Assembly: GCA_963811105.1 (NCBI GenBank)
Contig: CAWEPZ010000009.1
Location: 361,911-425,910, forward strand
Direction: 5' to 3'
Source: Candidatus Bathyarchaeota archaeon
GTDB taxonomy: Archaea; Thermoproteota; Bathyarchaeia; Bathyarchaeales; Bathycorpusculaceae
Length of the DNA: 64,000 bases
A program made the position numbers and the translations under genes. The notes beneath the pieces were generated by a model, which did not search any database, was not told the DNA's origin, and saw nothing but the letters and a program-made list of their open reading frames with translations. Of this stretch, positions 14,763 through 49,062 are shown piece after piece (position 1 is the stretch's first letter; the number at the start of each line of letters is the position of its first letter).

Positions 14763-15425
14763 TTAAACAAGCTTCATTTGCAGTGTACCATGCTCGCTTT
14801 TTGCTCTTTTGGCAGGCTTCCAAGATTTCCTGACAAAACTTGGATAGTCGCCATTCTTTTCCAGCAACTTCTTAAGAAAAATCATGGTTTTGCTATCAGT
14901 TAAGTATCCACTGCCAAAGTCACCGTACTCCGATCTTAAACTATCAATTTCCCTGTCACGTTCCACCTTAGCAATGATTGATGCAGCCGAAACAATTGGG
15001 TAGATCCTGTCAGCTTTGTGCCGAGAGACTATTCTGGTCTTGGTTTTAAGGCACTCTCTAATATGGTTTCCAAATCGTTGCTCAACTGTATCAGCGGCAT
15101 CAACGTAGACTTCATTAGGCTTCAAGTCTTCAATCACCTGTGCCATGGTCTGCGCCTCAAGCCTATTTAGCTTGTGCAATCTTCTGGAACTTTCAACTAC
15201 TTTATCAATTTGAGAAGGAAGAACCTTAACAGTTTGATATTTTTGGCTTAAACTTATGATTTCAGGGTACAGAGCTTCTCGCTTCTTGGGGGAAAGAAGC
15301 TTTGAATCTTTTACGCCTAACTCAATTAAAGAAGGCAAATTTTCAGCAGTTACCATGACGCCAGCGACTAATAGTGGACCGATAACACAACCCCGTCCAG
15401 CTTCGTCAACACCGGCAATCAACAA
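14763..15425 (-). CDS. rnhB: Ribonuclease HII
   Basis: GVDEAGRG, DSKLL, VSAASIIAKV, GSGY motifs. Confidence 0.97.
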   Translation of the reverse strand: MLIAGVDEAGRGCVIGPLLVAGVMVTAENLPSLIELGVKDSKLLSPKKREALYPEIISLSQKYQTVKVLPSQIDKVVESSRRLHKLNRLEAQTMAQVIEDLKPNEVYVDAADTVEQRFGNHIRECLKTKTRIVSRHKADRIYPIVSAASIIAKVERDREIDSLRSEYGDFGSGYLTDSKTMIFLKKLLEKNGDYPSFVRKSWKPAKRAKSEHGTLQMKLV

Positions 15426-15584
15426 TTTTTCTGCACTCCTGATATTAATGGAATGGTTAAGGTTCTAAGCTATAACACTTCTTGTGAAGAAACAAATTCT
15501 ATGTTAGAAATCAGAAGAGGAAGATTCTTGTTAAGCTTCAAAGTGCAAAAAAATAACAGCGTTTTCGCAACCAAGCAATATTAT

Positions 15585-16283
15585 TCAAAGGTGTTGCGCT
15601 ACAATCATAGCGTGTGCCTTATCATATGGCTCCAAATGCACAATTTCTTTCACATCAAAGCCTCTTTTACGCAATATGCCTGCTTCCTGTCGATAGACTG
15701 CATCTGGATCCATTGTTACATCGATGCTTTGCGATTTCACAGCTATCATAACCCAGCCTTCAGGTTTAAGAAAAACATCTGCATTGTCAGCTAACAATTT
15801 TGCTTGTTCAGGCTGAGCAACATCGCAGTAAATTGTATCTACTTTACCTGAAATGAACATGGCATATCTCTCGGGCATTCGAGCGTCTTCCAAAAGAGGA
15901 GAAATGTTTGGGCGGTATGTGGCAACGTTGTTGACTAAATCTCTGATTGATCGCTGAGCGAATTCAACACAGTAAACATGGCCAGTTTCACCAACAATGT
16001 CGGAAACATGGCTAGGTGTAGTTCCAGAAGCTGCGCCTAAATAAAGCACTTTGCTAGCTGATTCTATGGGTACAGTTTGAACCCCTTTTAGAATGACGGC
16101 TGCAAGTTTGCTTCTGAACGCATCCCAAATTCGGTACTCTATGCCTTTGAACTTGACAAGACGCTCACCGTAAACGTTTAAGCCAGGCGTCAAGTTACGG
16201 GTAGCTAACCGTTGTGTTCCGTCTTCAAGGGTTGCTTGGTATATTTCTTTGAATTTTAGGTGCGGTTTAACCTTAACGGTCAA
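15585..16283 (-). CDS. flpA: Fibrillarin-like rRNA/tRNA 2'-O-methyltransferase
   Basis: VYGE, RSKLAA, VLYLGAASGTT, DVAQPEQA motifs. Confidence 0.97.
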   Translation of the reverse strand: MTVKVKPHLKFKEIYQATLEDGTQRLATRNLTPGLNVYGERLVKFKGIEYRIWDAFRSKLAAVILKGVQTVPIESASKVLYLGAASGTTPSHVSDIVGETGHVYCVEFAQRSIRDLVNNVATYRPNISPLLEDARMPERYAMFISGKVDTIYCDVAQPEQAKLLADNADVFLKPEGWVMIAVKSQSIDVTMDPDAVYRQEAGILRKRGFDVKEIVHLEPYDKAHAMIVAQHL

Positions 16284-17578
16284 CGCCTTTCTCTTCTCCG
16301 ATTCCTATCCCTGCGCGGTCCGCCGCGGTCTCTGAAAGGGCGTCCACCGCCTTCATGAGGCCTAAACGATCGCTCTCCGCCATCTTTACGTTCAAATGTT
16401 GGTCTTGGTTTAGATTCTTTTGGTGGAGGCGGCTCCTTGTACTTCTCTCGAATTTCGTCTAAACGTTTGTTAATTGCCTCTTTTAATTGCTCCCCAATAT
16501 AGTGGCCTCCGAAAGCATCAGCTCTGGCAGCGATGGCTAGTTTTCCAGCGATCACTCTTGCGATTTTTCCTCTCTGCCATCTCTTAGCATCATGCAGGAG
16601 TGTGTGTTGGAATATTAAGCCGTGTTTTGGCGGTCTTGCACCTGTTTTCAATGAACGGAACAGGGCTTTTTCTGCGCCTAAAACCTGTATGGTGCTTGCT
16701 GGCCTCATAGCCAGGTTCTGCAAGCTTCCTGCAATAGCGATTAGGCGTGCTCCAAGCAGTGCTCCTGCAACCGTACGCACATTGGGGGCCATTTCCTCCA
16801 TGGTTCGGTCAACGTAATTCTCCATGTTCTTGCGCAGTTCATAAAAATCAAGTACGTTTTTGGCTAAAGACTGTATTTGTTCTAAGTCTCGTTCTGCGAT
16901 GTCAGCACCCATAGATGATTCTGCTGCTTTCGCAACATGTTGGGCTCTTTCTTTAGGAATATTTTCTTTCTCTAAGCCTTCCATAGTATAGTTTTCTCTG
17001 TATCCTAAGTTCATTACAAGCCTAGAGTAGGTTTCATGTTTTTCGATTAAGCGGTCAAGCTCAGGGAAGTACACGCCATACCATTCTCTTAGTCTGCCCA
17101 TGAACAAGTTGACTGTACGATCTAGATCATCCAGGGTCTGAATACCCTGTGCAATAATTAGATCTCTTTTTTCTGAGGCGCCTTTGATTCGCAGTTTGGC
17201 AAGTTCCATACTGACATTACGATTCCACAGGCTAAGCTCCTGCTCATCATTAACGAATCCTGATTCAAAAGCAACCTCATTCATGCGGGAGCGAAGAACT
17301 TCGGCATCGGCAGGTTTCGCTACTTCCACATTCACGTCCATTTTCCTTTGAATTTCTTCTGCCAAGTTGGCATTTTCAAAAAGGAAAGCGTCATAGCCCA
17401 CATTTTTTAAGAGCGAAATTAATGAGAAAATATCATCGGACATCTTTCCGGCTTCAGCCTTAAGCAAGCTTCTTGCTGCTGCCTGAGGTTTTTTCGGAAA
17501 CAATACCTTCTCAACTGACCTGTTTTTGTCGTCGAAGGCTACCACGCCGAAAGGGAACTGAATTATGAATGCTTTCAT
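16280..17578 (-). CDS. nop5: C/D box sRNP subunit Nop5 (Nop56/58)
   Basis: LREWYGVYFPEL, PASTIQVLGAEKALF, PPKHGLIFQH; coupled to fibrillarin. Confidence 0.97.
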   Translation of the reverse strand: MKAFIIQFPFGVVAFDDKNRSVEKVLFPKKPQAAARSLLKAEAGKMSDDIFSLISLLKNVGYDAFLFENANLAEEIQRKMDVNVEVAKPADAEVLRSRMNEVAFESGFVNDEQELSLWNRNVSMELAKLRIKGASEKRDLIIAQGIQTLDDLDRTVNLFMGRLREWYGVYFPELDRLIEKHETYSRLVMNLGYRENYTMEGLEKENIPKERAQHVAKAAESSMGADIAERDLEQIQSLAKNVLDFYELRKNMENYVDRTMEEMAPNVRTVAGALLGARLIAIAGSLQNLAMRPASTIQVLGAEKALFRSLKTGARPPKHGLIFQHTLLHDAKRWQRGKIARVIAGKLAIAARADAFGGHYIGEQLKEAINKRLDEIREKYKEPPPPKESKPRPTFERKDGGERSFRPHEGGGRPFRDRGGPRRDRNRRRERR

Positions 17579-31705: not shown

Positions 31706-32095
31706 CTATTTGCTAAGTATTTCTTCTTCTTCCTGAATGAGCAAGGGCAAAGATTCTCCGTGGGTTTTTACAAAATGCGACATTTTTTGGATTGAAAAAT
31801 TGTAAGCAACAACGGCTTTTCCGAATTTTTCTTTTCCTGCCGAAGTTACCCGGTAAACCACTTTACCTTTTTGAAGGGTGGATTTTATTAATTTGTCGTC
31901 TTCCAAGCAGTGCAGAAGAGGATAGAGCGAACCTGGGCTAAGCAATATACCAAATTCTTTGTGGAGGGTCGCAATTATCTTATATCCGTGCGTAGACTCG
32001 CCAGTTAATATAGCCATAATTACGATATCCAAAAAAGTCTTGAGATGCCTTTCAGCAATCTTATTTTCATACATCACATTTTGAAATGAAAGCAT
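31706..32095 (-). CDS. PadR-family transcriptional regulator
   Basis: THGYKII...LSPGSLYPLLH...YRVTSAG. Confidence 0.9.
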   Translation of the reverse strand: MLSFQNVMYENKIAERHLKTFLDIVIMAILTGESTHGYKIIATLHKEFGILLSPGSLYPLLHCLEDDKLIKSTLQKGKVVYRVTSAGKEKFGKAVVAYNFSIQKMSHFVKTHGESLPLLIQEEEEILSK

Positions 32096-33154: not shown

Positions 33155-33760
33155 TTAAGTTAACTCGACCAAAATCTTTTCTTCAGCTTCTTTTGTTTTT
33201 TCTTCAAGCATTCTCTTCAATTCATAAACGGCTACAGTGTGAAGCAAAGCTACCTCAGTGTTTGAATTATCCTTCTCGATTAAAACTTGAAGGGGGCTAC
33301 TCTTTTCTTCCAAGTTTTCGTTCATATCGAAAGATAAACTCTTTATTCTGTCGATAGCTGTCTCGAACAAAACCCTATTTGGCTTTTTCCTAAACAAGAA
33401 CAACCTTTGGTTTGTAAGGTAAAGATAACCTGATCTCCAGACACCTGAATTAAACTTGTCTCGGCAATAGTGTGAACCAAATGTCTTTAGAATAATTTCT
33501 TCATTCTCATTTAACGGAGCTTCTTCATTACTTTCCGCTAATACGGATTTTCGAATCTGCTCATCCCATGTTCCCATCATGCCGTAATCAACCATCGTTG
33601 TCAACCCAGCGATCGCGGCTTTCAAATTGATTCCAATTAAAGGAACTCCAGAAACCGAAATTATGACATCTGCATGAAGAATTACGCCTTTGACCAAGAT
33701 TCTGTCAACAAGATCTACAAGAGCTCCATCTCTTGAAGGCAACAAATTAGTCTTCTCCAA
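33155..33760 (-). CDS. gvpM: GvpA/J/M-family gas vesicle protein (GvpM-like) fused to a GRAM/PH-like domain
   Basis: LVDLVDRILVKGVILHADVIISVSGVPLIGINLKAAIAG N-terminus; C-terminal GYLYLTNQRLFLF typical of GRAM/PH folds. Confidence 0.8.
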   Translation of the reverse strand: MEKTNLLPSRDGALVDLVDRILVKGVILHADVIISVSGVPLIGINLKAAIAGLTTMVDYGMMGTWDEQIRKSVLAESNEEAPLNENEEIILKTFGSHYCRDKFNSGVWRSGYLYLTNQRLFLFRKKPNRVLFETAIDRIKSLSFDMNENLEEKSSPLQVLIEKDNSNTEVALLHTVAVYELKRMLEEKTKEAEEKILVELT

Positions 33761-35673
33761 AATCAGCTTCTAGCAAAATAACAGTTTCTCTTAAGTTGCA
33801 GAACTCTTCAGTAACGCGTTCATATGGCGCTTCTTCAAGATTTTTTACCGAAGCTTGAAGTTTTTTCTTTTTCTCGTTCGAAAACTTTTCACCTAATTTA
33901 TCTTCCAATGCGGAAAGTAACATCTTTGCTTGACTTACTTTTTTCAACTTTGTACTCAACCCCTCCTTAAGTTCGAGAAGCTTACTACTAAGCTCTCGGA
34001 CTGTTTGGAGCTCATGGTCGTTCATTGCCTCATTTAATCGGTTCAGCGCCATTTCAACCTGCCTCCTGTCTTTGTTTGAAATTTTTCCATTAGTCTCTTC
34101 CAAGAATTTTTGTGTTGCGTAGATTGTAAAAGTTGCTCGATTTTGGTTTTCTATTAATTCCTTTTTTATCTCATCTTCTTCGATAAACTTGGTTGCTTCC
34201 ATAATCCTTCTCATGAGTTCTTCCTGAGAAAGACTCTTAGTATCTGCCACTTTGGCAACTTCTAGTTTTCCTGTTTCTAAAATTTCCGCAGAAACAGTTA
34301 AAATACCGTTAGCGTCAATTTCGAACGTCACTTCCACTTTCTGTTCATATTTAGGTGCCTTAGGAATACCCTCAAGCTTAAACAAACCTATGGACGTGTT
34401 ATCCTTAGCCATCTCCCGATCACCTTGTAAAACATTAATCATCATAGATGTCTGGTCATCCTCTTGCGTTGCGAAAGTCATGTTTTCCTCTGTCGGAATA
34501 GTACTGTTTCGTTTGATTAGACGCGTAAATAATCCGCCAGAAGTTTCTACACCCAAAGACAGCGGTGTGACATCTAACAACAACATATCTCTAATTTCGC
34601 CATTCAAAATACTGGCTTGAACGCCAGCACCTGTAGCGACTATACCCATGGGGTCTATACCTATTTCTGGTTCCTTTTTAAAATAACTTCTAAAATATTC
34701 TCTAACACATGGAATTCGGGTGGGTCCACCTACTAAAATTAGATTATCTATATCTTCGAGATCCAAACCGGAGTCTTCTAAGGCTTGCTCCATGGGACCT
34801 TTCAGCCTATCAAGTTGAGGTTTGATTAATTCTTCAAGCTTATCCCGAGTTAAAGTTATGAACAAACTTGTTATGGAGTCGTTTACATTAACCTCCGTTT
34901 TTGCTGTTGTCCATAATTCAGTTGAAAGTTGAATCTTTGCCATTTCGCCAGCATCTCTTAGTTTGTTCAAGTTCCTACAGTCATTTTCTAAGCGAACTTT
35001 GTACTTTCTTTCAACTTCTTCAATCAAGATAATCTAAAATAGCATCATCCATGTCTTTGCCACCCAGATGAATATCTCCGCTAGTGGACATGACTTGGAA
35101 TAAACCATTTTTCATATGCAGAATAGTCACGTCGAAAGTTCCAGCGCCTAAGTCCAACACAGCCACATTTAGGTTTCTTCCTGCCTTGCCTAAACCGTAA
35201 GCTAGAGAAGCAGCTGTGGGTTCACTGACTACTCTTAAAACTTCAAAACCCGCTATTTCTCCAGCTTCCTTAGTAGCGTTTCTTTGATTATTATTAAAGT
35301 AGGCGGGCGCAGAGATTACTGCCTTGTCTATTTTCTCTCCTAAATAAGTTTCAGCGTCTCTTTTTATCTTCTTGAGTATCAAAGCCGAGATTTGTTGAGG
35401 ACTATAAACCGTGCCATCAATATTTTCAACATGATCTGTACCAATTTTTCTTTTGATCCACCTTATCGCTCGCTCAGGGTGCTCATACGAGTAGTTTTTT
35501 GCAGGTTTACCAACGAGGATTTCACCATCTTCTTTAAATGCAACAATAGAAGGGAACATTTTTCCGTTAGGAGTTGGATCTTCTGCAGCAGGGACAAGTC
35601 TTATTTTTCCATCTTTCATAACAGCGGCAGCTGAGTTAGACGTCCCAAGATCTATTCCAATGGTTCTAATCAT
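33747..35673 (-). pseudogene. dnaK: DnaK/Hsp70, split by a +1 frameshift near 35025 (ORFs 35020-35673 and 33747-35027)
   Basis: GIDLGTSNS, PAYFNNNQR, EPTAA, DLGAGTFD in ORF1; LVGGPTRIP, LLDVTPLSLG, FEIDANGIL in ORF2; junction TAT-C-TTG-ATT-GAA. Confidence 0.9.
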
Positions 35674-35689
35674 AATGATCCCTTGAAGA

Positions 35690-36673
35690 TTATTTAGCCG
35701 CCTTTTCTTCAATTACTATATTTTCTTCGACATCTGTTTTCGTAATTGAGCAAAGGTAATGTTCACAGTATTTAGTCAGCAGAGCTTGTGCTTCCCTTAT
35801 TTTCTTGAACATCTTTTCGCAGGATGGGTCATCTGGGTGAAGGTCAGGATGGTATCGACGTGCTAGACTGTTGTATGCCATGTTAATTTCAGAAATACTT
35901 ACTTCTTGACTTAGACCCATGGTTTTTCTCGCTTCCTCCAATGAATCAAAATTTATCTTTTTTACACCTATTTTTGCAAAATTGTATGCCGGCAAGGGAC
36001 CGACGGAAATAAACTTCAGGTAATTAACGTGTTTTTTCTCTAACTCATTCAGTTTATCATAAAAATCCTGTTCTCGACTTTTATCAATAAGGAAAGCAGC
36101 ATCCAAGAGTGTTTCTTGATCAATTATTTTGTTTTCTTCTGAATCTACTGATAAGCTCTTCAGAGTGCGTGCAATACCTTCCAAGTATTCAATTTTTCTT
36201 TGATCCAGTTCAGCCTTGACTCTTTTCCCTAGCTCAATTTTGTGTGACTGATTAGCGTTTTCTTTGTTTTCGTTGACTAGTTTTCGGATTTCTGCATTTT
36301 GGTTTAAAATGTTTAAGAGCATACCTTTATCCCATGAAATTTTGACGTTAATTTGTAATTTGTGGTCGACCTTTTCCATAGTTTTTTTAAGCTTCATTCG
36401 ACCATGTTTGAGAATGTTCCTTATCTCTTCATCGTCTTTGGCTATAGCTCCAAATCTCATTGGAATAACTGTATGAGGTTCCATGATTTTCCGTAAAACA
36501 TCATCATGAATTCTCGCCTCTGCTCTCCCAATACAACAATTCTCGCCGATGTCGCTGACTATAACACCCATGTCTTCAAATTGAACACTGTATATTTCCC
36601 CATTATCCATTCCAATTCTGCCGAAGCTTTTTTGGCAATCAGAGTTGATGATTCCGTAAATGTATTTGGGCAT
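35690..36673 (-). CDS. GvpL/GvpF-family protein fused to a C-terminal J domain
   Basis: YIYGI, TVIPMRFG, GPLPAYNF (GvpL/F), then MGL...EINMAYNSLARRYHPD...FKKIREAQ (J domain with HPD). Confidence 0.9.
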   Translation of the reverse strand: MPKYIYGIINSDCQKSFGRIGMDNGEIYSVQFEDMGVIVSDIGENCCIGRAEARIHDDVLRKIMEPHTVIPMRFGAIAKDDEEIRNILKHGRMKLKKTMEKVDHKLQINVKISWDKGMLLNILNQNAEIRKLVNENKENANQSHKIELGKRVKAELDQRKIEYLEGIARTLKSLSVDSEENKIIDQETLLDAAFLIDKSREQDFYDKLNELEKKHVNYLKFISVGPLPAYNFAKIGVKKINFDSLEEARKTMGLSQEVSISEINMAYNSLARRYHPDLHPDDPSCEKMFKKIREAQALLTKYCEHYLCSITKTDVEENIVIEEKAAK

Positions 36674-36679
36674 TCATTC

Positions 36680-37489
36680 TCACCGGGTTCCTTTTATTTT
36701 TGATTCGCTTAACTGGCCTGCAAAAGAATATGGTGGCCAAGGTCCAGTGAACCTAACGACAAATCCTTCATTCTTCAAATGTCCTAGCGTATTTCCTAAG
36801 CTCTTAATTTTTTCTTGTTGTGCAAGACAAGTTACGTTAAGAACCATTTGTTTGCCTTGCCATTTCCCATGAACTTCCCGGTTTATTGAACCAAGTTTTA
36901 TTTCCTCAACAAGCTTCTCGATTTGAGCGTACAAATTTCTTGCATGTCTATCTATGAAAAGCTGTTTTTCAAGTTGTATTTCTTTTTCTAACTTTTTCTC
37001 AATCAGATAAGCAGCGCCCCTACTTGTGCTCTCTATTTTCTTTTTTAAACTCTGGATTTCTAACTTGTTATTTAGAGTTTCATCAATCAGGCCGTTTTCG
37101 AGGAAAATCTGAACACCATACTCGGCTTTTCCCTTAAGTTTCATTAGCAAAGTTTTGAGCTGAAAGTATTCTTTGCTGAGCCACTCTTTGAGCGTTTCGT
37201 CGTCTCCTTTGAAAATCGTGTCAAAAGTTAGAGGAATAACAGTTCCATATTCCTCAGTAGCCAGGTCAATCACAAATTGATGCGCCAAAATCCATTCTCC
37301 GGCTTTCTCTTTTGATGTCGTTACATAAGGCTTTGTCTCACACGAATGGATGACTACTCCTATATCTTGGAAAGTTACAACACTAACATAGCTATCTTCA
37401 ACGCCGACTTGTCCAAAATTCTTCTTATTTGCACTATTGATTATACAGTATAGGTATCTTCCTTCTCTGCACCTATTTTCTTGAATCAT
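36680..37489 (-). CDS. gvpL: GvpL/GvpF-family gas vesicle protein
   Basis: GRYLYCI, TVIPLTFDTIF, EYGVQIF, TGPWPPYSF; follows gvpK. Confidence 0.9.
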   Translation of the reverse strand: MIQENRCREGRYLYCIINSANKKNFGQVGVEDSYVSVVTFQDIGVVIHSCETKPYVTTSKEKAGEWILAHQFVIDLATEEYGTVIPLTFDTIFKGDDETLKEWLSKEYFQLKTLLMKLKGKAEYGVQIFLENGLIDETLNNKLEIQSLKKKIESTSRGAAYLIEKKLEKEIQLEKQLFIDRHARNLYAQIEKLVEEIKLGSINREVHGKWQGKQMVLNVTCLAQQEKIKSLGNTLGHLKNEGFVVRFTGPWPPYSFAGQLSESKIKGTR

Positions 37490-37808
37490 TCAAGTCACCG
37501 TTATTGTTTATATTTTCAGGATTAGTCATGACTTCAACTGTGTCTTCAACTAGTCTGTCAAGGTCAGTTCGTAAAGATTTAACAATAGATTGGAGGCCAT
37601 TTTCATCTATTATATGTTTGAGGGCTCCATCAAGCTCTCTTAGGCCATTTCCTAATCTTTCAATCTCCTCGTCGCTCAGTTTACCAGACTCCATTCTCCG
37701 CACAGCTTCTTTTTCAAGAACCTCTTGAATAATTTCAACTAAAGCAACAATTACTCCGATGAGACCCGATTTTAGGTCACTTTCATTAATTTCTATAGGC
37801 ATTGTCAT
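37473..37808 (-). CDS. gvpK: Gas vesicle protein GvpK
   Basis: GLIGVIVALVEIIQEVLEKEAVRRMESGKLSDEEIERLG. Confidence 0.93.
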   Translation of the reverse strand: MTMPIEINESDLKSGLIGVIVALVEIIQEVLEKEAVRRMESGKLSDEEIERLGNGLRELDGALKHIIDENGLQSIVKSLRTDLDRLVEDTVEVMTNPENINNNGDLNDSRK

Positions 37809-38328
37809 TTCCTCTTTTGATTAATTTTACTTCTAAAACACCGTTGTTGATTGTTTTGCTAATTTTCTCTTCAACAAGGCAAGGGAGAGGGACTTCTTTG
37901 TAGTATTCTTGCCCCGATATTATTAGATGAGAATCTGCTATTGTTACTTGGATGGTTTCTTCTTTTGAAGGCAACATCGTTACAACTCTTAAGAGGATTT
38001 TTTCATCTATTACATCTACCAACTCATCGTTATGAGTTATACCTACCAACTCTTCGTCTGCCCACCAACTAAATAAAATTTTTTTGCCATTAGAAGAATC
38101 GATTTTTGATCGTTGGAAAGTGGCAATGGGTTTTCCAATGACTTCTTGCGCTTTTGGGTTTATGATTTCCCTAATTTTAATAAGCACTTCCATATCCGAA
38201 GAGGCGCAAATCAGGTTTGTTAATTGCTTTATCCCTGCATGACGCTCTTTTATAAGATATATTGTTATATGCCTGCTTTTCTCGTCTAAAGTGTTAAGGA
38301 GCAGATCAAGTTTGTTCAGCGTACTCAA
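37786..38328 (-). CDS. Hsp20/alpha-crystallin-domain protein (GvpH-like) with N-terminal extension
   Basis: C-terminal VDVIDE...YYKEVPLP...INNGVLEVKL; lies between gvpJ and gvpK. Confidence 0.75.
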   Translation of the reverse strand: MSTLNKLDLLLNTLDEKSRHITIYLIKERHAGIKQLTNLICASSDMEVLIKIREIINPKAQEVIGKPIATFQRSKIDSSNGKKILFSWWADEELVGITHNDELVDVIDEKILLRVVTMLPSKEETIQVTIADSHLIISGQEYYKEVPLPCLVEEKISKTINNGVLEVKLIKRGNDNAYRN

Positions 38329-38720
38329 CTGCGAACACCCACCTTAGATGCAACTTTTAATCCTTTTTGTTTCTTAGCTCTTGCGCTCTCCCATCCGCAC
38401 CAAGGGCAAGCAAAATCCAACAATTCTTGCCTGTTAACCTGTTTGGAACATTGAGGGCAATCTTCTTTTTGTATTGAAGCGTCTTTCCAAGCAGCTGTTT
38501 CCAAATTGGTTCCTAATGGAAATTCTAGCCCGTATTTCGCAGCGGTTTCAAAAGAGGCAAGTGCAGCTCTGATTTTTATTCCTAGCAGCTCAACTCCAGC
38601 AACGCTAATAACTATGTCTGCGTTGATTACTAGTCCTTTATCTAGGATTCTATCTATAGCGTCCGCCAATCCTGAATGTTCTTTTTCGGGAGTTAAAGTA
38701 ATGCTATCCAAGTTTTTCAT
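38325..38720 (-). CDS. gvpJ: Gas vesicle protein GvpJ with C-terminal Zn-ribbon
   Basis: LADAIDRILDKGLVINADIVISVAGVELLGIKIRAALASFETAAKYGLEFP; CPQC...CPWC. Confidence 0.92.
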   Translation of the reverse strand: MKNLDSITLTPEKEHSGLADAIDRILDKGLVINADIVISVAGVELLGIKIRAALASFETAAKYGLEFPLGTNLETAAWKDASIQKEDCPQCSKQVNRQELLDFACPWCGWESARAKKQKGLKVASKVGVRS

Positions 38721-39040
38721 TCCTTATTTTGTCCATATATCCAACCACACCAAGGGCACTCGCTTTTGAATTCTTCTTGAGTGGATTCTCGGTCGCAAAT
38801 TGGACAAGCGTGCTTTGCGGCTAAAATTCTCCATGATGCTGTGTTCAAATTAGTGTTTTCAGGAAATTTCAAACCTATTTGCTTAGCCGTTTTAAATGAT
38901 GAAAGGACGATACGTGATTTAGTGTCCAAAAGATCAATGTTGCTAAAACGAATCCTCGCATTTGAGTCAACTGTAACGCCCTTATCCATTATTACGTCTA
39001 ATACGCTGTTCAGAGTAGCATTTCGGGTTCTATTTGTCAT
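38717..39040 (-). CDS. Divergent GvpJ paralogue with C-terminal Zn-ribbon
   Basis: LNSVLDVIMDKG...SFKTAKQIGLKFP; CPIC...CPWC. Likely start is the ATG at 39040 after an AGGAGG SD. Confidence 0.82.
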   Translation of the reverse strand: MTNRTRNATLNSVLDVIMDKGVTVDSNARIRFSNIDLLDTKSRIVLSSFKTAKQIGLKFPENTNLNTASWRILAAKHACPICDRESTQEEFKSECPWCGWIYGQNKE

Positions 39041-39195
39041 CAATGAGAGATGCCTCCTTGAGATTGATTGATGCCCCATTCATTTGAAAATGTAGTTAAG
39101 GCTGTCAATTTAGTCGCCTCGCGAAAACATTTTAAGACTTGTTGATAAGAGTGCCTTTTTCTGTTTATCTTTCATTACATTTTGCTCCTTTAAAT

Positions 39196-40169: not shown

Positions 40170-40997
40170 CTAAATTTCCAGTTGTAAGTAGTGGTTTAGA
40201 GCTTTGTGAGCTTGAATATGCTCGTAAACCATGCTTCTTATTCTCGGTTTAGCGTCTTCTACTGGACCGTAGACTATTTCCTTGCCTGATTTCGTGATTT
40301 TCAATAGTCCTTTTTGTTTCAAAGAATGAAGAAGCGGGTATATAGTTCCTGGACTAAGTAAAACGTTGAACCTCAAATGAATGGTTCCTATTATTTCGGT
40401 GCCGCACATCATTTGTTTTTGTAGAATAGACAAAATTAGATTTTCCAAGTTATCTTTCACTATTTTTTCAACGGATTTACCCGATACCCTCGAGTCATCG
40501 AAGAAATCTCCAGATAATATTGTCAGGTCATTTGTTGTTAGGCGAAGTTGATTGTGATATAAGGCTAATTGTTTAATTTTTTCAAAACTGAATCGTGATA
40601 GGTCGTAGGTACATAGACAGTTTATAGAGCGTTTTTTGCTCAATTCGTTCAGATAGTTTTCTCTTTTCTCGATTTCAGCTTCTTCTTGATTGTCTAACGA
40701 TCCTGCATCTACAATAAGTTGCAGATCATTACTTTCCTTTTCGAAACTGTAAATATCACGTGGATTGACAATTTCTAGTTGAATGTTTGGGTGATTGAAT
40801 TCTTGTGCCAGGGATGAGCTATCGACATTGGTAACGTAGATTATTTTTTGATTTTGTCGAGTTGCTGGTATTAAGAACGCGTTTTGAATCGTGTATTTAT
40901 CAACATTTGGAGCATACAGGTGGAGTGTATGGTTTGAGGTTCTTTTGTCCATGCTCGAAAATTGCTTGGAAGAATTGAAAAGGGAAGCTGTTTCCAT
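40170..40997 (-). CDS. MEDS-like sensory domain fused to a PadR/GvpE-like wHTH regulator
   Basis: N-terminal HTLHLY...IIYV...LCTYD...H pattern (MEDS-like); C-terminal CGTEII...LSPGTIYPLLH. Confidence 0.78.
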   Translation of the reverse strand: METASLFNSSKQFSSMDKRTSNHTLHLYAPNVDKYTIQNAFLIPATRQNQKIIYVTNVDSSSLAQEFNHPNIQLEIVNPRDIYSFEKESNDLQLIVDAGSLDNQEEAEIEKRENYLNELSKKRSINCLCTYDLSRFSFEKIKQLALYHNQLRLTTNDLTILSGDFFDDSRVSGKSVEKIVKDNLENLILSILQKQMMCGTEIIGTIHLRFNVLLSPGTIYPLLHSLKQKGLLKITKSGKEIVYGPVEDAKPRIRSMVYEHIQAHKALNHYLQLEI

Positions 40998-42880: not shown

Positions 42881-43252
42881 TCATCCGTAGAATTGTTTCG
42901 TGTATTCTTGGTGTTGTTTTACTTGATCAGCTATACTGACTTGCATGGCAGCAATACCTGAAACCATTTCAGCGACACCAGATTGCAGATTTCGTGTACC
43001 ATCAGCGTGCATTTTTTTGGCGGCTTCTTGGAAGTTTATAGCGGTTTGATGGATACTTTTCTGCATCTCACAAACTCCTGTTAACAGATTGTTGATTCCT
43101 TCGATACGCATTTCATTGGCAGCTTCTTGGAAGTTTATAGCGGTTTGATGATAAAGTTTTCTTTTGCCATTAACGGTATTTGTATTTGTTGCTGGTGTTT
43201 TGGTTGGTTCAGTTACTGGGCCTGTTTGATTTTTCGTTTTATGTTTAGACAT
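42881..43252 (-). CDS. gvpC: GvpC-like protein with two 33-residue repeats
   Basis: Directly downstream of gvpA; HQTAINFQEAA repeated at 33-aa spacing; C-terminal FYG as in haloarchaeal GvpC repeats. Confidence 0.7.
   Translation of the reverse strand: MSKHKTKNQTGPVTEPTKTPATNTNTVNGKRKLYHQTAINFQEAANEMRIEGINNLLTGVCEMQKSIHQTAINFQEAAKKMHADGTRNLQSGVAEMVSGIAAMQVSIADQVKQHQEYTKQFYG
43023..43150. repeat. Exact 29-bp direct repeat at 99-bp spacing inside the gvpC-like gene
   Basis: gcttcttggaagtttatagcggtttgatg at 43023-43051 and 43122-43150. Confidence 0.95.
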
Positions 43253-43303: not shown

Positions 43304-43531
43304 TTAGGCTGCTGGAACAGGAGCAGCGATTGCTGCTTGCTCGACCTTTGTGATTTCTTCTGCGTAATGGAGGAATGTATCGACTGAGGCGACTACCACT
43401 CTGGCTTCGATTGTGAGAATTTCGATTCCAACCAATGAAGCCCTTGCCCAAGCATCGACGACTATGCCTTTGTCGAGTACGCGATCGAGTACTTCTGCCA
43501 AACTACCTGAATCTGGACTTTGTTGCACCAT
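43304..43531 (-). CDS. gvpA: Major gas vesicle structural protein GvpA
   Basis: [51 protein letters not shown]; ATG at 43531 with GAGGTGA SD (75 aa). Confidence 0.98.
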
Positions 43532-43812: not shown

Positions 43813-44379
43813 GTGTGGCTAATATGTCGGGTAGCATTCAATAGGGGCAAAACCAAATTGCTAGTCCGGGGTACCCAAGATGCAGAATGGGTTTTTTGCC
43901 CAAGGACAAAAAGCATAAAAAACGACAAAGTAACCATCCAATGTTGCGACGAATGTGCCCATTTTGTTCGTCTTGAACACTTCTCTCTCCCGCAAACACA
44001 GGCTTGGAAACGCAGCATCATGCCAAAACATCCCAACTACCTACATTTTAGAAAACCGCCGATCAATCGCTGGAGTTCTAAACGACAAACAATATTGGCA
44101 CCATCCCATTCAATGTTAAGCTTTAGAGTCGAAAAGCAACCACTATTAGACGTCTTTGAAGAGGATGACTGTGTAGTAGTTTTAGCAGAATTGCCGGGTA
44201 TGGAAGAAAAAGATGTAAATATCGAAGCCGACGAAACTACTGTGACAATTACTGCGAAAAACTCAGTTAGGACCTATCTAAAGAAGATAAAACTTCCAAC
44301 GCCAATTCTAAGTAGTGAGGTGGAGATCATTTATAGGAACAACATTTTGCAGGCAAAGTTAAAAAAACTTAAAGATTAA
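43813..44379 (+). CDS. Hsp20-domain protein with Cys-rich N-terminus
   Basis: C-terminal PLLDVFEE..VVVLAELPG...YRNNILQAKL; N-terminal FCPR...CCDECAHF. Confidence 0.8.
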   Translation: MWLICRVAFNRGKTKLLVRGTQDAEWVFCPRTKSIKNDKVTIQCCDECAHFVRLEHFSLPQTQAWKRSIMPKHPNYLHFRKPPINRWSSKRQTILAPSHSMLSFRVEKQPLLDVFEEDDCVVVLAELPGMEEKDVNIEADETTVTITAKNSVRTYLKKIKLPTPILSSEVEIIYRNNILQAKLKKLKD

Positions 44380-44427
44380 CCCCAAAAGTTGCTTTTTAGG
44401 CTCTCCCAAAAATGTAAACGTCGTGAG

Positions 44428-45039
44428 CTATTCCTTACGTGTCGGTTGTAGTTCTCTTGAAAGTTGATTTACGACTTCAATGAGTTTATGTAAACCTGAT
44501 TCTATATCTCCTTTTGATACATGTAATATGATTTGTGATGTTTCTTTCCTTAGCATCGCCATTTGATGGCATATTTCGCAGCTCTTTTTTCCTTTTTCGA
44601 AGTCTGTGCATGCCAAAAGTAAATCAACTGCTTCAATTAGTTCTCGTGCTTTGTTTGCTTTGGTCACTATGTCTAAGGCTTGATTTATTTGTTCATTGAG
44701 CTGCTTAATTGTTTGTTCTATTTTGACATACGTAGGGCAAATCGTTATCTGGGGTTGTTTGTTGACCTTAAAACCTCTTGGATCTATAGCTACTTCTATA
44801 CCCACAGTATGGCAGATTCTGTAGTATTTTCTTGCCGCACCAATAGGGCTTTTTTTCTTGAAACTTTCTATAAGACCAGCTTCTTCGAGTATGCTGAGGT
44901 TTTTAAGGATGGCTGGCTGCGTGATCTCCAATCTTTTGGCTATTTCAGATATGTAGCGTGGCTCTTGAGAGAGTAAGGTAAGTATTTTTCGGCGAGTTTC
45001 GTTTCCGACAATTTGGAGAATTTTGCCTGCAGGTTCCAT
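44428..45039 (-). CDS. Phr/HSR1-like archaeal heat-shock regulator (ArsR-type wHTH)
   Basis: GNETRRKILTLL...YISEIA...ILEEAGLIES...RKYYRI plus coiled coil, matching the Phr/HSR1 pattern; sits between hsp20 and cdc48. Confidence 0.82.
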   Translation of the reverse strand: MEPAGKILQIVGNETRRKILTLLSQEPRYISEIAKRLEITQPAILKNLSILEEAGLIESFKKKSPIGAARKYYRICHTVGIEVAIDPRGFKVNKQPQITICPTYVKIEQTIKQLNEQINQALDIVTKANKARELIEAVDLLLACTDFEKGKKSCEICHQMAMLRKETSQIILHVSKGDIESGLHKLIEVVNQLSRELQPTRKE

Positions 45040-45090
45040 GAATGACCTTCTTCCTTCTTCACTGGGAATGTAACAAAACGTATATATACA

Positions 45091-45112
45091 TTTAGTTAAT
45101 AACTAAAAGTTA
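45091..45112. promoter_or_regulatory. Putative heat-shock regulator operator
   Basis: TAAC-N5-GTTA at 45100-45112 overlapping a perfect IR TTTAGTTA-a-TAACTAAA (45091-45107); TATATATA at 45081-45088. Confidence 0.65.
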
Positions 45113-45143
45113 AGCATACTAAAATGAGCAAAGGTAAGCATTC

Positions 45144-47333
45144 GTGTCAGAATCTGCTCCAACCTCAAATTCGATAACACTGCGCGTTTCTGAAGCCTCA
45201 CTAAGAGACTTCGGTCGAGGAATAGCAAGAATAGATCCCCAAGCAATGAAGGAAATTCAAGCTCAAACAGGCGACATCATCCAAATCACCGGAAAAAAAA
45301 GAACCGCCGTAAAAGTTATGCCCTCTTACCCAGAAAACCGGGGAAAAAACGTTGCTCAAATCGATGGAATAATACGTAATAATGCTTTAATTGGAATCGG
45401 CGACACGGTCTGTGTAGAAAAAATTAAGGCTGAAACTGCAGAAAAAATAACGCTTGCACCACTCGAGCACGACCAGTCATGGCGAGGAGGAGACAAACCC
45501 TTAGAACATGTACGTAATCTTCTAGATGGCTTAGCGGTGGTTGAAGGAGATCAGGTCCGACTAAGCCTTTTAGGGTCAAACGCCTCCTTTGTTGTAGCCA
45601 GAATCAAACCAAACTGTCCAGTAGCTATACTTCACTCTACAACGGAGATAGTTATACTTGAAAAACCAGCACAAAACGGAAGAAAAATTGGCGCCACATA
45701 TGATGATATCGGGGGGTTATCTGAGCAGATTCAGCGGACGAGAGAAATGATTGAACTTCCTCTTCGGCATCCAGAAGTGTTTGATCGCCTTGGAATAGAA
45801 CCGCCAAAAGGGGTCTTACTACATGGCCCTCCAGGCACAGGAAAAACTCTTATTGCAAAAGCTGTAGCAAACGAAACTTTCGCTACTTTCATCAGCATCA
45901 GCGGTGGAGAAATACATGGAAAGTACTACGGTGAATCTGAAGCCCGCTTAAGAGAGATATTTACCGAGGCATCTCAGAACAAACCTTGTATCATATTTAT
46001 TGATGAGATCGACGCAATAGCCCCAAAAAGAGAAGAAGTCACAGGTGAAGTCGAAAAAAGAGTAGTGTCCCAATTGTTATCGTTGATGGACGGGCTAGAA
46101 CCACGCGGACAAGTAGTGGTTATTGGGGCAACAAATAGACCCAACGCAATTGACCCTGCTCTGCGGAGAGGCGGACGGTTTGACCGAGAAATAGAGATAG
46201 GTATGCCAACAAGAGAAGGGCGGTTTGATATTTTCCAGATTCATACTCGAGGCATGCCGCTTACTTCTGACGTAGATTTAACGAATCTGTCTTCATTAAC
46301 ACACGGCTTTACAGGTGCAGACATTACAGAGCTCTGTAAAGAAGCAGCCATGAAGTCTCTAAGACGAGTTTTGCCGGAAATAAACTTTGAAGCTGAATTT
46401 ATTGCCACAGACATCCTTAACAAACTGGTAGTAACGATGGATGATTTTCAGGACGCATTGCGGTTTGTTGAACCCTCAGCTTTACGAGAGGTTTTAATTG
46501 AAACACCTAATGTCACATGGGAGAACATAGGTGGACTCCATGAACTAAAACAAGAACTTATCGAAGCTATTGAATGGCCTCTAAAATACGCTGACATTTT
46601 TAAAGAAGCTGGAGCAAAACCGCCCAAGGGAATAGTTCTTTGTGGACCTCCAGGCACAGGGAAGACTCTTTTAGCGAAAGCGGTTGCCAAAGTAAGTCAA
46701 GCAAACTTTATCCACGTCAAAGGTCCAGCGCTTATGAATAAATTTGTTGGTGAATCAGAGAAGGGTGTAAGAGAAATATTTCGGAAAGCTAAACAAACAG
46801 CGCCATGTATCATTTTCTTCGATGAAATAGATGCCTTGGTTCCTAAGCGAGGAAGCGGATTAACTGATGCTCACACCTCGGAAAGGGTCATAAGTCAATT
46901 TCTTACAGAATTGGATGGGCTAGAGGAACTTCGCGGCGTTATGGTTCTAGCAGCGACAAATCGTATTGACATAATTGATCCTGCTTTACTGAGACCTGGA
47001 CGGTTCGACCTTATTCTACAAGTTCCGCCCCCAGATGCTGATGCAAGGCTCGAAATTTTCAAGATACATAGCGCAAAGAATCCTCTAGCAAATGATATCT
47101 CCTTTGAGAAATTGGCTGAAGAAACAAAAAGCTGTACCGGAGCTGACATAGACGCAATCTGCCGAGAAGCTACTATGTTTGCTATCAGACGTTTTCTTAA
47201 CAAAAATACGACAGATTTAACCAACTTAAAACCGACTAAACTTGAAGTAACAATGGAAGATATGATAATAGCAATCAAACAGATGAACAATCGTAAAAAA
47301 TTGATTGAACGCTCAGGAGCAGAAGCTGACTGA
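45144..47333 (+). CDS. cdc48: CDC48/VAT/p97-family AAA+ ATPase
   Basis: N-domain ([10 protein letters not shown]), two AAA modules each with GPPGTGKT, Walker B DEID and arginine finger ([13 protein letters not shown]). Confidence 0.97.
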
Positions 47334-48307
47334 TGAAAAAATCGTTTTTATTAGAAACTGAAGATGCAAGCAGCCAAAATAACCTCTCTAAATCAATGCA
47401 AGAGCGGATTAATCAAGTCCTCGGAGATGTCCATTTGAGAATGGTTGAGTTGTTCAATGTTGATTTCACTTTTTTTAAAAGCTTTAAATTGTTGAGGCGT
47501 CAAGAATTTCAAAATCAATTGGCCCAACGGATACAAGACGATCTAAAAGAAAGTGGTATAGAAAGCAGCGGTACTCAATTGGGACAAATTACTCAAGTTC
47601 TTGCGCGAGATCAAGCGGCTGGCGTATCTGAACATTTTGCTTTTTATAATCTCAAAAATGATAACCTGTATTTAAACGAAGACATGGCCATAAATTACCC
47701 GGAAAAAGTGGTTTCGGTGTGTGCCCACGAACTTGCCGAAAAACTTCTTTCAACTTGCATATCCTTGCCGCCAAATTCGTCAATGCGATCTGCTGTGAAG
47801 CTATATCTCGAAGTAAAGAACATTAGTGATCCCGAAAGGCTTCAGCAGATTTTAGATATATATTTTGAGACTATTTTCAAGGCTGTCTTTAAAGAGGGTG
47901 CTTGTGAGGCAATAGCAGTTCACGTTATGCGTAACATGAATTATGCGACTGAAGCAGCTATTTTAGAAGAAGAATTGAAGGAAGGTTATACAAAATGTTC
48001 AGGGCTCTTATCACGTATTGAAAATATAAGAAAAACCGTGATGACATCGAAGGTTATCCAACTGGACAGTAAAGTGTTGGATGAACAAGTAATAGTTGAG
48101 GAAGTTCTGAAGAACTCGCAGATAATTAAAGGTGTTTCGTACTATTTGGGCTATCCGCTTGCAAGAGTAGTTCTAGAAAAATATGGACTTTATGGTATGC
48201 GTTTTATCGTAGAGAACGCTTTGCCGCTCAAAGCGGAATATTTCTCAAATCCAGAATCCTACCTTGTCACATTAGATAAGATACTTTCTAAACAAATGGA
48301 GAAATAA
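47333..48307 (+). CDS. Hypothetical zincin-like protein (HExxE variant)
   Basis: AHELAE, downstream EGACE and YYLGY; translationally coupled to cdc48. Confidence 0.6.
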   Translation: MKKSFLLETEDASSQNNLSKSMQERINQVLGDVHLRMVELFNVDFTFFKSFKLLRRQEFQNQLAQRIQDDLKESGIESSGTQLGQITQVLARDQAAGVSEHFAFYNLKNDNLYLNEDMAINYPEKVVSVCAHELAEKLLSTCISLPPNSSMRSAVKLYLEVKNISDPERLQQILDIYFETIFKAVFKEGACEAIAVHVMRNMNYATEAAILEEELKEGYTKCSGLLSRIENIRKTVMTSKVIQLDSKVLDEQVIVEEVLKNSQIIKGVSYYLGYPLARVVLEKYGLYGMRFIVENALPLKAEYFSNPESYLVTLDKILSKQMEK

Positions 48308-48312
48308 AACAG

Positions 48313-49062
48313 ATGGTTAAAAAAGAAAAAAACGGAAATACTTCAGGAGAAAAAACCATTGGAGCGTTAAAAAAGGAAGTCGCAAAGAAAGGAAAAGAAA
48401 TTGAGGAGCTACAAAAATCCGTAGCCGAGATGCGAACTCAAATTCAGAAAAAAGATAAAATTGTGGACCCTCCTGAACCAGATAAAATGGTCGACGGGCT
48501 CATGAACGTCGGTTTTGGGTTACTTGGCTCGTCAAATGCTGCAAATGGTCAAAAGGCCAAAGGTTTGCTGGGTTTAGTCGACGAGTTAGGTAAGTTGGCG
48601 GAGAAAACCCAGATGACTCAGACAACGCAGAAGAGAATTAATTTTGGAAAAGGAGGCGTAGTTGACTTTCGAGTAAGTTCCCGACCAATAAAAGGTGGTT
48701 CCTCACTTCAACCTGCGAGTCGATCGAAAATCGGAACACTTATCAAACAATCCTCAAGCACATATGCCCCCATGCCACTTGCAGCAGGAACCATAAAAGA
48801 AAGAGAACTTATCGTTGACATCTTTGAAGAAGAAGATTGCCTCCATGTAATGGTGGAACTGCCTAATGTCAAAGAAAACGAAATATCCCTAGACGTAGAA
48901 GGCAATACTCTAACAATAAAAGCTGGCACTCAGAATAAAGAATACTTCAAGAAAGTTGAGCTCCCTGCTACTGTCGAAAAAAAAATAGTTGAATCAAGTT
49001 GCCGCAATGGAATCCTTGAAGTTAGGCTAAAAAAGAAAACCATTGCCAATCAGACCAAGTAG
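48313..49062 (+). CDS. Coiled-coil + Hsp20/alpha-crystallin-domain protein (GvpH-like)
   Basis: N-terminal coiled coil; VDIFEEE..VMVELPNV...YFKKVELP...RNGILEVRLKK. Confidence 0.85.
   Translation: MVKKEKNGNTSGEKTIGALKKEVAKKGKEIEELQKSVAEMRTQIQKKDKIVDPPEPDKMVDGLMNVGFGLLGSSNAANGQKAKGLLGLVDELGKLAEKTQMTQTTQKRINFGKGGVVDFRVSSRPIKGGSSLQPASRSKIGTLIKQSSSTYAPMPLAAGTIKERELIVDIFEEEDCLHVMVELPNVKENEISLDVEGNTLTIKAGTQNKEYFKKVELPATVEKKIVESSCRNGILEVRLKKKTIANQTK

Follow-up and report, generated by a model that had tools for sequence, protein, structure and literature searches.

A GvpL/F protein fused to a J-domain and encoded beside an Hsp70 points to a dedicated chaperone module in archaeal gas-vesicle gene clusters

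In the established J-domain/Hsp70 cycle, the J-domain triggers ATP hydrolysis by Hsp70. Auxilin works with the general Hsc70 of the cytosol to drive the disassembly of clathrin coats, and TopJ, the J-protein of the Mycoplasma terminal organelle, is dedicated to building a cell structure. That a J-protein and an Hsp70 can be dedicated to one process is textbook knowledge; a link of this principle to gas vesicles is, as far as we searched, new. Two questions about gas vesicles are open: the role of the accessory proteins GvpF and GvpL, and how the very hydrophobic GvpA stays soluble and reaches the growing shell. In Halobacterium, GvpL is described as binding all other accessory Gvps and GvpF as binding GvpA (PMC7688916), GvpM is reported to bind GvpL and to be kept soluble by GvpH, which resembles a small heat-shock protein (sHsp) (PMC6107691), and a chaperone-like role for GvpA has been proposed for GvpF (PMC11445434). 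Here, we describe a 64,000-nucleotide stretch of DNA, called the window below, from a Candidatus Bathyarchaeota archaeon (GenBank assembly GCA_963811105.1, contig CAWEPZ010000009.1, positions 361,911 to 425,910 of the forward strand), whose gas-vesicle (gvp) gene cluster encodes a GvpL/F protein fused to a J-domain and, directly downstream of it, an Hsp70. We read this pair as a dedicated J-protein/Hsp70 module built into the gas-vesicle gene cluster, a reading to which we assign a probability of roughly 70%.

The window is archaeal, with genes for fibrillarin, Nop5, CDC48 and an ATP-dependent DNA ligase, and is most closely related to metagenome-assembled genomes (MAGs) of Bathyarchaeia. Its gvp cluster comprises 16 genes, all on the minus strand and running from 43621 down to 33155, and GvpA, GvpN, GvpO, GvpF/L, GvpG, GvpJ/M and GvpK are all encoded between these positions. 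In the direction of transcription, the order is GvpA, a 123-residue repeat protein, GvpN, GvpO, a MEDS-PadR regulator, a GvpF-like protein, GvpG, two GvpJ-like proteins, an Hsp20-like protein, GvpK, a GvpL/F protein lacking a J-domain, the fusion, Hsp70, and a GvpM-like protein. The fusion and Hsp70 lie inside this co-directional cluster; a first-pass annotation, made by a model from the letters alone, had placed them inside the gvp operon. The parts of the fusion are as follows.

35690-36673, minus strand: GvpL/F-J-domain fusion, 327 residues, intact (PF06386 and PF00226 profile matches)
35975-36667, minus strand: GvpL/GvpF domain of the fusion, residues 3-233 (PF06386 profile and PDB sequence matches)
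35774-35923, minus strand: J-domain core of the fusion, residues 251-300, with helices I and II, HPD and helix III (PF00226; aligns with E. coli DnaJ)
35843-35851, minus strand: HPD tripeptide, residues 275-277, invariant in the aligned fusions
35693-35767, minus strand: C-terminal extension in place of helix IV, YCEHYLCS and a charged, strand-like tail (from the alignment)

Pfam assigned residues 3 to 233 of the fusion to GvpL_GvpF (PF06386; 172.6 bits against a cut-off of 23.6, E = 1.9e-50) and residues 251 to 300 to DnaJ (PF00226; 45.5 bits against 27.8, E = 7.9e-12), the latter match spanning profile positions 5 to 54 of 63. These two matches, together with the HPD at residues 275 to 277, bear out the earlier proposal of an intact HPD J-domain fused to a GvpL/F protein. 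A sequence search of the PDB likewise showed that residues 4 to 235 resemble solved GvpF (6l5d_A, 1.7e-13; 4qsg_A, 4.5e-12) and that the C-terminal domain resembles many solved J-domains (best value 1.9e-07), including that of DnaJ in 5nro_B. The J-domain can be aligned with E. coli DnaJ through helices I to III and the HPD, and H275, P276 and D277 are invariant in all 18 aligned fusions. Past helix III, where DnaJ has helix IV, the fusions carry an invariant YCEHYLCS motif (Y302, C303, H305, L307, C308 and S309 do not vary in the alignment of 18) and a charged tail; the motif is specific enough to work as a search pattern for related loci. Among NCBIfam models, TIGR03835 and NF037946 matched the J-domain weakly. 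The candidate assignment of the fusion as a GvpF or GvpL orthologue was ruled out by its scores against both equivalogue models, which fall below the cut-offs (GvpF(cyano) NF052351, 83.3 versus 350; GvpL NF045778, 47.5 versus 200), and by its nearly equal distance, at ∼24 to 25% identity, from both of the remaining GvpL/F paralogues encoded in the window. By these sequence criteria the fusion is a third GvpL/F-type paralogue, assignable to neither F nor L.

A search of the fusion against 5.8 billion protein clusters gave 246 matches at E ≤ 1e-3. Among the best 120 of these 246, which were examined, PF00226 and PF06386 were both present in 120 of 120 (52 to 71% identity, one being the window's own protein), and almost none of the 120 carried an informative name. 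A scan of species-representative genomes then yielded 26 related loci (L001 to L026), 25 of which encode an HPD-bearing GvpL/F protein; the J-domain was confirmed by Pfam in all six of the distant fusions tested. The search for proteins combining GvpL_GvpF and DnaJ domains that the first-pass annotation had suggested was therefore positive throughout the listed matches and in all related loci except one. Hsp70 lies directly downstream of the fusion in 21 of the 26 loci (L001 to L021), the gene being a complete single open reading frame (ORF) in 19 of them and running off the end of a contig in the other 2, and in 19 of these 21 loci the gap between the fusion and Hsp70 is −16 to +33 nt. L001 to L021 are mostly Bathyarchaeia and also include MAGs labelled Micrarchaeota, Thermoproteota, Thermoplasmatales, Methanocellales and Halobacteria. 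In the deltaproteobacterial locus L022, Hsp70 (15277-17037) lies in the same cluster ∼7.9 kb downstream of the fusion and is preceded by paired genes for a histidine kinase and a response regulator. The DNA of L023 does not extend far enough to show whether Hsp70 is present, and L026 has neither a J-domain nor Hsp70, though CDC48 and Hsp20 are present. Neither GrpE nor a full-length DnaJ was found in the six distant loci scanned or in the window, where the Pfam scan covered 49 ORFs of at least 150 residues and 5 shorter ones, and NCBIfam was also run on the 6 ORFs left blank by Pfam; for the window, this agrees with the first-pass annotation.

The Hsp70 gene that follows the fusion in the window is disrupted. 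Its parts are the following.

35674-35689, minus strand: spacer of 16 nt between the fusion stop codon and the Hsp70 ATG (from the sequence)
35020-35673, minus strand: Hsp70 5′ fragment, 217 residues, from nucleotide-binding domain (NBD) lobe I to the start of IIB, ending at a premature TGA (PF00012)
33747-35027, minus strand: Hsp70 3′ fragment, 426 residues, in the +1 frame (PF00012, profile positions 235-591)
35020-35028, minus strand: frameshift site, CTT GAT TGA, with one surplus base at ∼35024 relative to orthologues (comparison with orthologues)

The fusion ends at a TAA (35690-35692), and 16 nt on, an ATG (35673-35671) opens the Hsp70 frame. The first-pass annotation had given dnaK at this distance, and the spacing stands; the gene, however, is not one frame but two overlapping ORFs. 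The 5′ ORF extends over 35020-35712, with its actual start at 35673, and covers Hsp70 profile positions up to 234. The 3′ fragment holds the remaining NBD, the LLLD linker, the substrate-binding domain (SBD), the lid and an LLEADxGE tail, and jointly the two fragments reach PF00012 profile position 591 of 599 (NBD, linker and SBD). The first frame ends ...ILDYLD*, and the +1 frame goes on (L)IEEVERKY. At the break the window reads CTTGATTGAAGAAG, with one extra base that is best placed as an A at ∼35024, outside any homopolymer. In contrast, all 19 orthologues aligned at the break site read through DYL-x-x-E in a single frame (L010, for example, has CTT GTT GAA GAA).

The split Hsp70 in the window is either a recent pseudogene or an assembly error. 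If it arose by an error of assembly or sequencing, the cell would carry one intact gene of ∼641 residues, and the module would be fully functional in this organism. The gene is a single frame in all 21 related loci that have it in this position, the closest relatives in the database are mostly 602 to 652 residues long (115 of 120), both fragments are well conserved and free of further stops (57 to 73% identity to relatives, measured for the 3′ fragment against full-length proteins of ∼641 residues), and every other gvp gene aligns with its orthologues nearly from end to end. In addition, the contig is 425,910 nt long, which hints at a long-read assembly, a kind that is prone to indels. Against this explanation, the extra base lies outside a homopolymer, and among the ∼55 window genes checked, one other is split (a transposase, listed below), so that the indel error rate looks low. 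Moreover, the window fusion is present in the protein database (P0001), whereas no 100%-identical Hsp70 fragment was found among the 120 matches listed, which is consistent with a record that treats the gene as a pseudogene. We consider an assembly error a serious possibility, though one that falls somewhat below even odds. The other explanation, in which the break is functional, either as a programmed +1 frameshift or because Hsp70 is naturally made as two polypeptides, could draw on the 8-nt overlap of the ORFs and on a possible TTG start of the second. We nevertheless give it next to no credence because no relative has the break (0 of the 19 orthologues aligned at the site). Reasoning from the sequence, CUU-GAU-UGA would also give no good re-pairing for a +1 slip, and the cut falls inside the NBD, at Hsp70 profile position 234/235. 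On the grounds of absence from relatives and poor sequence context, programmed frameshifting and a functional split were rejected.

To place the gvp-linked Hsp70s among their relatives, the intact orthologue of L003 was used as the query, which retrieved 59,152 Hsp70 representatives at E ≤ 0.001. In a FastTree phylogeny of 108 rows, which included representatives of 540 to 700 residues (84 of the 150 listed) and left out the N-terminal fragment of the window, the archaeal gvp-linked Hsp70s (20 loci and the C-terminal fragment of the window) formed one clade with two representatives (SH-like support 96). A quick IQ-TREE run of 49 rows recovered the gvp-linked clade with an SH-like approximate likelihood ratio test (SH-aLRT) value of 94 and nested it in a clade of SH-aLRT 100 with the canonical DnaK representatives P0125 and P0126. 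In both trees, DnaK and HscA of E. coli fell outside the gvp-linked clade. The homologue search showed P0125 to be the DnaK of Ferroplasma, Acidiplasma, Picrophilus and Thermoplasma, with members at least 72% identical; by sequence, it is the Thermoplasmatales housekeeping DnaK and the nearest canonical representative. The gvp-linked Hsp70 of L018, a Thermoplasmatales MAG, has 52% identity to P0125 and 60% to the gvp-linked Hsp70 of Methanocellales. The phylogeny against housekeeping DnaK that the first-pass annotation had called for thus sets the gvp-linked Hsp70s in a clade of their own.

Family models gave a similar picture. All nine gvp-linked Hsp70s tested scored below the TIGR02350 DnaK cut-off (621 to 810 versus 822.55), and eight canonical representatives scored above it. 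Specifically, the L003 protein, the nearest intact orthologue, scored 620.7 on TIGR02350, narrowly failed the looser DnaK model NF001413 (625.4 versus 648), and failed the HscA model TIGR01991 (484.2 versus 708.55). On this sequence evidence, the gvp-linked Hsp70 is an offshoot of an archaeal-type DnaK, from which it has diverged moderately, and it travels together with the gvp cluster. Neither tree places the Hsp70 of L022 in the gvp-linked clade, and this protein is without the loop insertion of the archaeal ones described below, which suggests a second, independent recruitment into a gvp cluster. That gvp clusters have taken up Hsp70s of two separate ancestries speaks for a functional need and against linkage by chance. 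A four-residue insertion in an NBD loop (equivalent to E. coli DnaK 28-34) was considered as a gvp-specific, possibly GrpE-related signature and was set aside, being common to P0125 and other representatives.

The gvp-linked Hsp70 keeps equivalents of E. coli D8, K70, E171, D194, T199, D201, R167 and T173 as well as the LLLD linker; these residues and the VLLL linker we take to be the catalytic and J-coupling elements of Hsp70. Bathyarchaeia-type pairs combine a serine at the N170 position with HPD-L (once HPD-I; residue 278 in the window), and the Thermoplasmatales, Methanocellales, 'Halobacteria' and deltaproteobacterial pairs combine N170 with HPD-K/R. This pairing of the N170 position with the residue after the HPD may reflect interface co-variation, though it amounts to a single phylogenetic event.

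Several observations weigh against a dedicated module. Some gvp-linked Hsp70s pass the NF001413 cut-off of 648 (L020 with 810, L006 with 687), which indicates that they are only moderately diverged from DnaK, and the four-residue loop insertion is shared with housekeeping archaeal DnaKs and hence is not gvp-specific. The proteobacterial loci L024 (6.2 kb) and L025 (17.5 kb) contain a J-fusion and no Hsp70 gene in the DNA covered, and thus a cluster-encoded Hsp70 is not obligatory. In the window itself, the 1-nt insertion splits the gene, and the module is perhaps non-functional in this organism. Lastly, an AlphaFold2 (AF2) model of the whole fusion, built from 18 aligned sequences, had a mean predicted local distance difference test (pLDDT) value of 63, with the J-region below 50, and was used for secondary structure at most.

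Some of these observations would also fit a dnaK that is a housekeeping Hsp70 lying by chance beside gvp genes, with the J-fusion drawing on the general chaperone pool. Besides the relatives that pass NF001413, relatives are named 'molecular chaperone DnaK' in their sources, and the J-fusions of L024 and L025 would presumably use the host DnaK. However, the adjacency is kept in 21 loci from four archaeal lineages, the clade is separate from the Thermoplasmatales housekeeping DnaK, all nine proteins tested miss the TIGR02350 cut-off, and there are no grpE or dnaJ neighbors in the window or in the six distant loci. Petitjean and co-workers (2012) reportedly found that housekeeping dnaK in archaea tends to lie in a cluster with grpE and dnaJ. 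In this genome, moreover, the gene is disrupted without a sign of wider decay. We regard a chance neighbor as very improbable, and the cluster-specific DnaK of the first-pass annotation is upheld to the extent that recurrence, a separate clade and the lack of grpE and dnaJ neighbors make a displaced housekeeping copy unlikely.

If the fusion and Hsp70 do act as a dedicated module, one of the three GvpL/F-family assembly factors would carry a C-terminal J-domain, and its GvpL/F part would bind hydrophobic GvpA-family proteins (GvpA or the GvpJ/GvpM-like proteins) or sit in a nucleation complex of accessory proteins. The HPD J-domain would dock on the ATP-bound form of Hsp70, whose gene begins 16 nt downstream, and trigger ATP hydrolysis, whereupon Hsp70 would clamp the client presented by the adaptor; clamping would either maintain shell proteins in a soluble state ready for assembly or remodel them. 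Recruitment of Hsp70 by the fusion is what we infer from the established J-domain/Hsp70 cycle. A structural model of fusion residues 1 to 240 with GvpA scored 0.40 against 0.01 for the best control, with runs agreeing in at least 45% of contacts and a partner pLDDT of at least 47, and weakly supports GvpA binding. Among 157 solved complexes, 116 reached the mark applied to such models, as did 2 of 215 mismatched pairs, counts that are rough since our own alignments were used; at scores of 0.60 or under, it was reached by 18 of the 157 solved complexes and by both of the passing mismatches. The GvpJ/M-like proteins are an equally plausible client. The earlier idea of an adaptor that delivers Hsp70 to GvpA or the growing shell is consequently favored by the recurrence of the fusion with Hsp70, the separate clade and the lack of grpE and dnaJ, and is tempered by the frameshifted Hsp70 of the window and the weakly modelled binding of GvpA.

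The remaining genes of the cluster include candidate clients and further chaperone-like proteins.

36680-37489, minus strand: GvpL/F paralogue lacking a J-domain, directly upstream of the fusion (PF06386, 2.5e-57)
33155-33760, minus strand: protein with a GvpM-like N-terminal domain and a PH-like C-terminal domain, called GvpM-PH below (NF046091 GvpM, 1.6e-25)
43304-43531, minus strand: GvpA, 75 residues from the ATG, candidate client (PF00741)
38325-38720 and 38717-39079, minus strand: two GvpJ-like proteins with C-terminal Cys motifs, CPxC ... CPWCGW
37786-38328, minus strand: Hsp20-like protein in a GvpH-like position (NF041800, 2.5e-11, below the cut-off; conserved in the loci)
42881-43252, minus strand: 123-residue protein between GvpA and GvpN, with two HQTAINFQEAA... 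copies
40170-40997, minus strand: MEDS-PadR regulator in mid-cluster, kept in almost all archaeal loci

GvpA of the window is 99% identical to that of L003. The start of the GvpM-PH gene overlaps the Hsp70 stop codon, and the gene adjoins Hsp70 or the fusion in most loci. Its C-terminal domain (∼120 residues) was modelled as a PH/GRAM/Ran-binding fold, with AF2 pLDDT values mostly of 70 to 92 over residues 81 to 200, and its top Foldseek matches in the PDB were the PH domains of GRK2 and Btk (E ∼1e-5, TM ∼0.4). At L019:7474-10807 lies a remnant composed of a fusion truncated N-terminally (matching from residue 123 on), Hsp70 and the GvpM-PH gene, with no further gvp gene within 7.6 kb upstream or 4.9 kb downstream. 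The Cys motifs of both GvpJ-like proteins of the window resemble a zinc ribbon, and a similar CGW motif ends long GvpM-like proteins in L021 and L022. The 123-residue repeat protein had no Pfam or NCBIfam match and is kept in the closest loci at 37 to 72% identity; where it lies and the repeats that it contains suggest an outer-surface protein of the GvpC type. The cluster is also flanked by additional PadR genes (31706-32095). The gvp clusters of L020 (10593-12554, minus strand; Methanocellales) and L021 (3130-5079, plus strand; 'Halobacteria') contain a tandem ArsA/Get3-like ATPase (PF02374, ∼1e-146), and small Hsp20-like proteins of the same clusters match an ArsA_HSP20 model, which hints at another chaperone or targeting component.

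Beside the cluster lies a block of genes (43813-49062) that includes a CDC48-like ATPase and two Hsp20 genes; the split transposase mentioned above is listed with it.

43813-44379, plus strand: Hsp20, beside the cluster
44428-45039, minus strand: ArsR regulator, beside the cluster
45144-47333, plus strand: CDC48-like double AAA+ ATPase flanking the cluster (profile; tblastn in related loci)
47333-48307, plus strand: ORF after CDC48, in the block beside the cluster
48313-49062, plus strand: Hsp20, beside the cluster
56040-57502, minus strand: IS-type (insertion sequence) transposase in two overlapping ORFs (DUF772 N-terminal part, DDE_Tnp_1_6 C-terminal part; ORF scan), the only other split gene noticed in the window

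Disaggregation systems such as Hsp70-ClpB/Hsp104 combine Hsp70, an sHsp and a hexameric AAA+ unfoldase. The same make-up here raises the alternative that the module serves disassembly, recycling or quality control, with Hsp70, the CDC48-like AAA+ protein and the Hsp20s pulling GvpA from collapsed or misassembled shells. By tblastn, CDC48 matches were found beside or inside the gvp clusters of 13 of the 26 loci (L001, L003 to L005, L009 to L011, L014, L016, L022, L023, L025 and L026), and in the bacterial loci L022 and L025 the CDC48-like gene sits within the cluster; Hsp20-like genes likewise occur in or beside it. A recent review states that Hsp100/ClpB is absent from most archaea (PMC13580251). 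Against disassembly, the fusion and Hsp70 come after the GvpL position and before the GvpM position in an F-G-(H)-J-K-L-M-like order, and the F-G-H-J-K-L-M-type unit of Halobacterium is described as encoding early assembly factors (PMC7688916; PMC6107691). Furthermore, L026 has CDC48 and Hsp20 but neither a J-domain nor Hsp70, which indicates that the two features are separable. We judge disassembly unlikely and tentatively favor assembly, and the conserved CDC48-like ATPase and Hsp20s beside the cluster would fit either. A full-text literature search, judged by titles and abstract openings, found no paper on a CDC48-like gene beside gvp clusters; PMC6107691 mentions Cdc48d only as a non-specific contaminant.

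There is also a broader reading, which we regard tentatively as having slightly less than an even chance: that gas-vesicle assembly is Hsp70-dependent in a large set of mostly uncultured archaea and, independently, in some Deltaproteobacteria, with GvpL/F as a client-specific J-co-chaperone and the cluster equipped with its own proteostasis kit. The kit would consist of the J-adaptor, Hsp70, the sHsp and the CDC48-like unfoldase. The conserved GvpL/F-J fusion with its adjacent Hsp70 provides fusion-based evidence that the GvpL/F fold presents clients to a chaperone and, if this is true, would be the first direct genomic evidence that GvpF/L proteins link the GvpA family to a chaperone as its adaptors. 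A full-text literature search, which did not extend to subscription journals or bioRxiv supplements, brought up no account of a GvpL/F-J fusion or a gvp-encoded Hsp70. The pair offers a directly testable system. Proteotoxic stress is reported to accompany the heterologous expression of gas vesicles (PMC12848028), and chaperone modules of this kind might lessen it.

Among known systems, the canonical archaeal DnaK (P0125) shares with the gvp-linked Hsp70s a clade of SH-aLRT 100, the four-residue loop insertion, and the ATPase and linker motifs. The gvp-linked proteins differ from it in sequence (46 to 58% identity), in falling below TIGR02350, in their distinct LLEADxGE tail, and in a gvp context that replaces grpE-dnaK-dnaJ. 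Halobacterium GvpF and GvpL belong to the same PF06386 family as the fusion, and once the fusion and Hsp70 are removed, the window order F-G-J-J-(sHsp)-K-L-M-like resembles gvpFGHIJKLM of Halobacterium; unlike the fusion, however, the Halobacterium proteins lack a J-domain, and their cluster contains no Hsp70. TopJ is likewise a J-domain protein dedicated to a specific cell structure and is weakly matched by the J-domain of the fusion, but the match is confined to that domain (22 bits versus a cut-off of 512), and the architecture and the organelle are unrelated.

The first-pass annotation had likened the pair to auxilin-Hsc70 on clathrin coats. The likeness holds for auxilin/GAK-Hsc70 in that a J-domain on a shell-recognizing module brings Hsp70 to a specific assembly; it is limited in that the auxilin comparison implies disassembly, whereas the pair here may act in either direction, that the Hsp70 here is cluster-encoded, and that homology is confined to the J-domain. 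HscC/DjlC and HscB/HscA of E. coli are closer, prokaryotic analogues. HscC/DjlC is also an adjacent pair of an Hsp70 and a dedicated J-protein, although HscC is the most distant reference (36% identity to the L003 Hsp70, on a long branch) and its biology is unrelated. Compared with HscB/HscA, the gvp Hsp70 lies outside the HscA family, the J-domain forms the C-terminal part of a fusion with a GvpL/F fold, and the presumed clients are gas-vesicle proteins instead of IscU. DnaK derivatives other than HscA and HscC are called largely unexplored 'dark matter' in a 2026 review (PMC13580251), and the GvpL/F-J/Hsp70 pair would add to HscA/HscB and HscC/DjlC a third kind of specialized prokaryotic Hsp70/J pair. 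As in HscB/HscA, a specialized Hsp70 that is a diverged relative of DnaK adjoins a client-specific J-protein in the operon of the process that the pair would serve.

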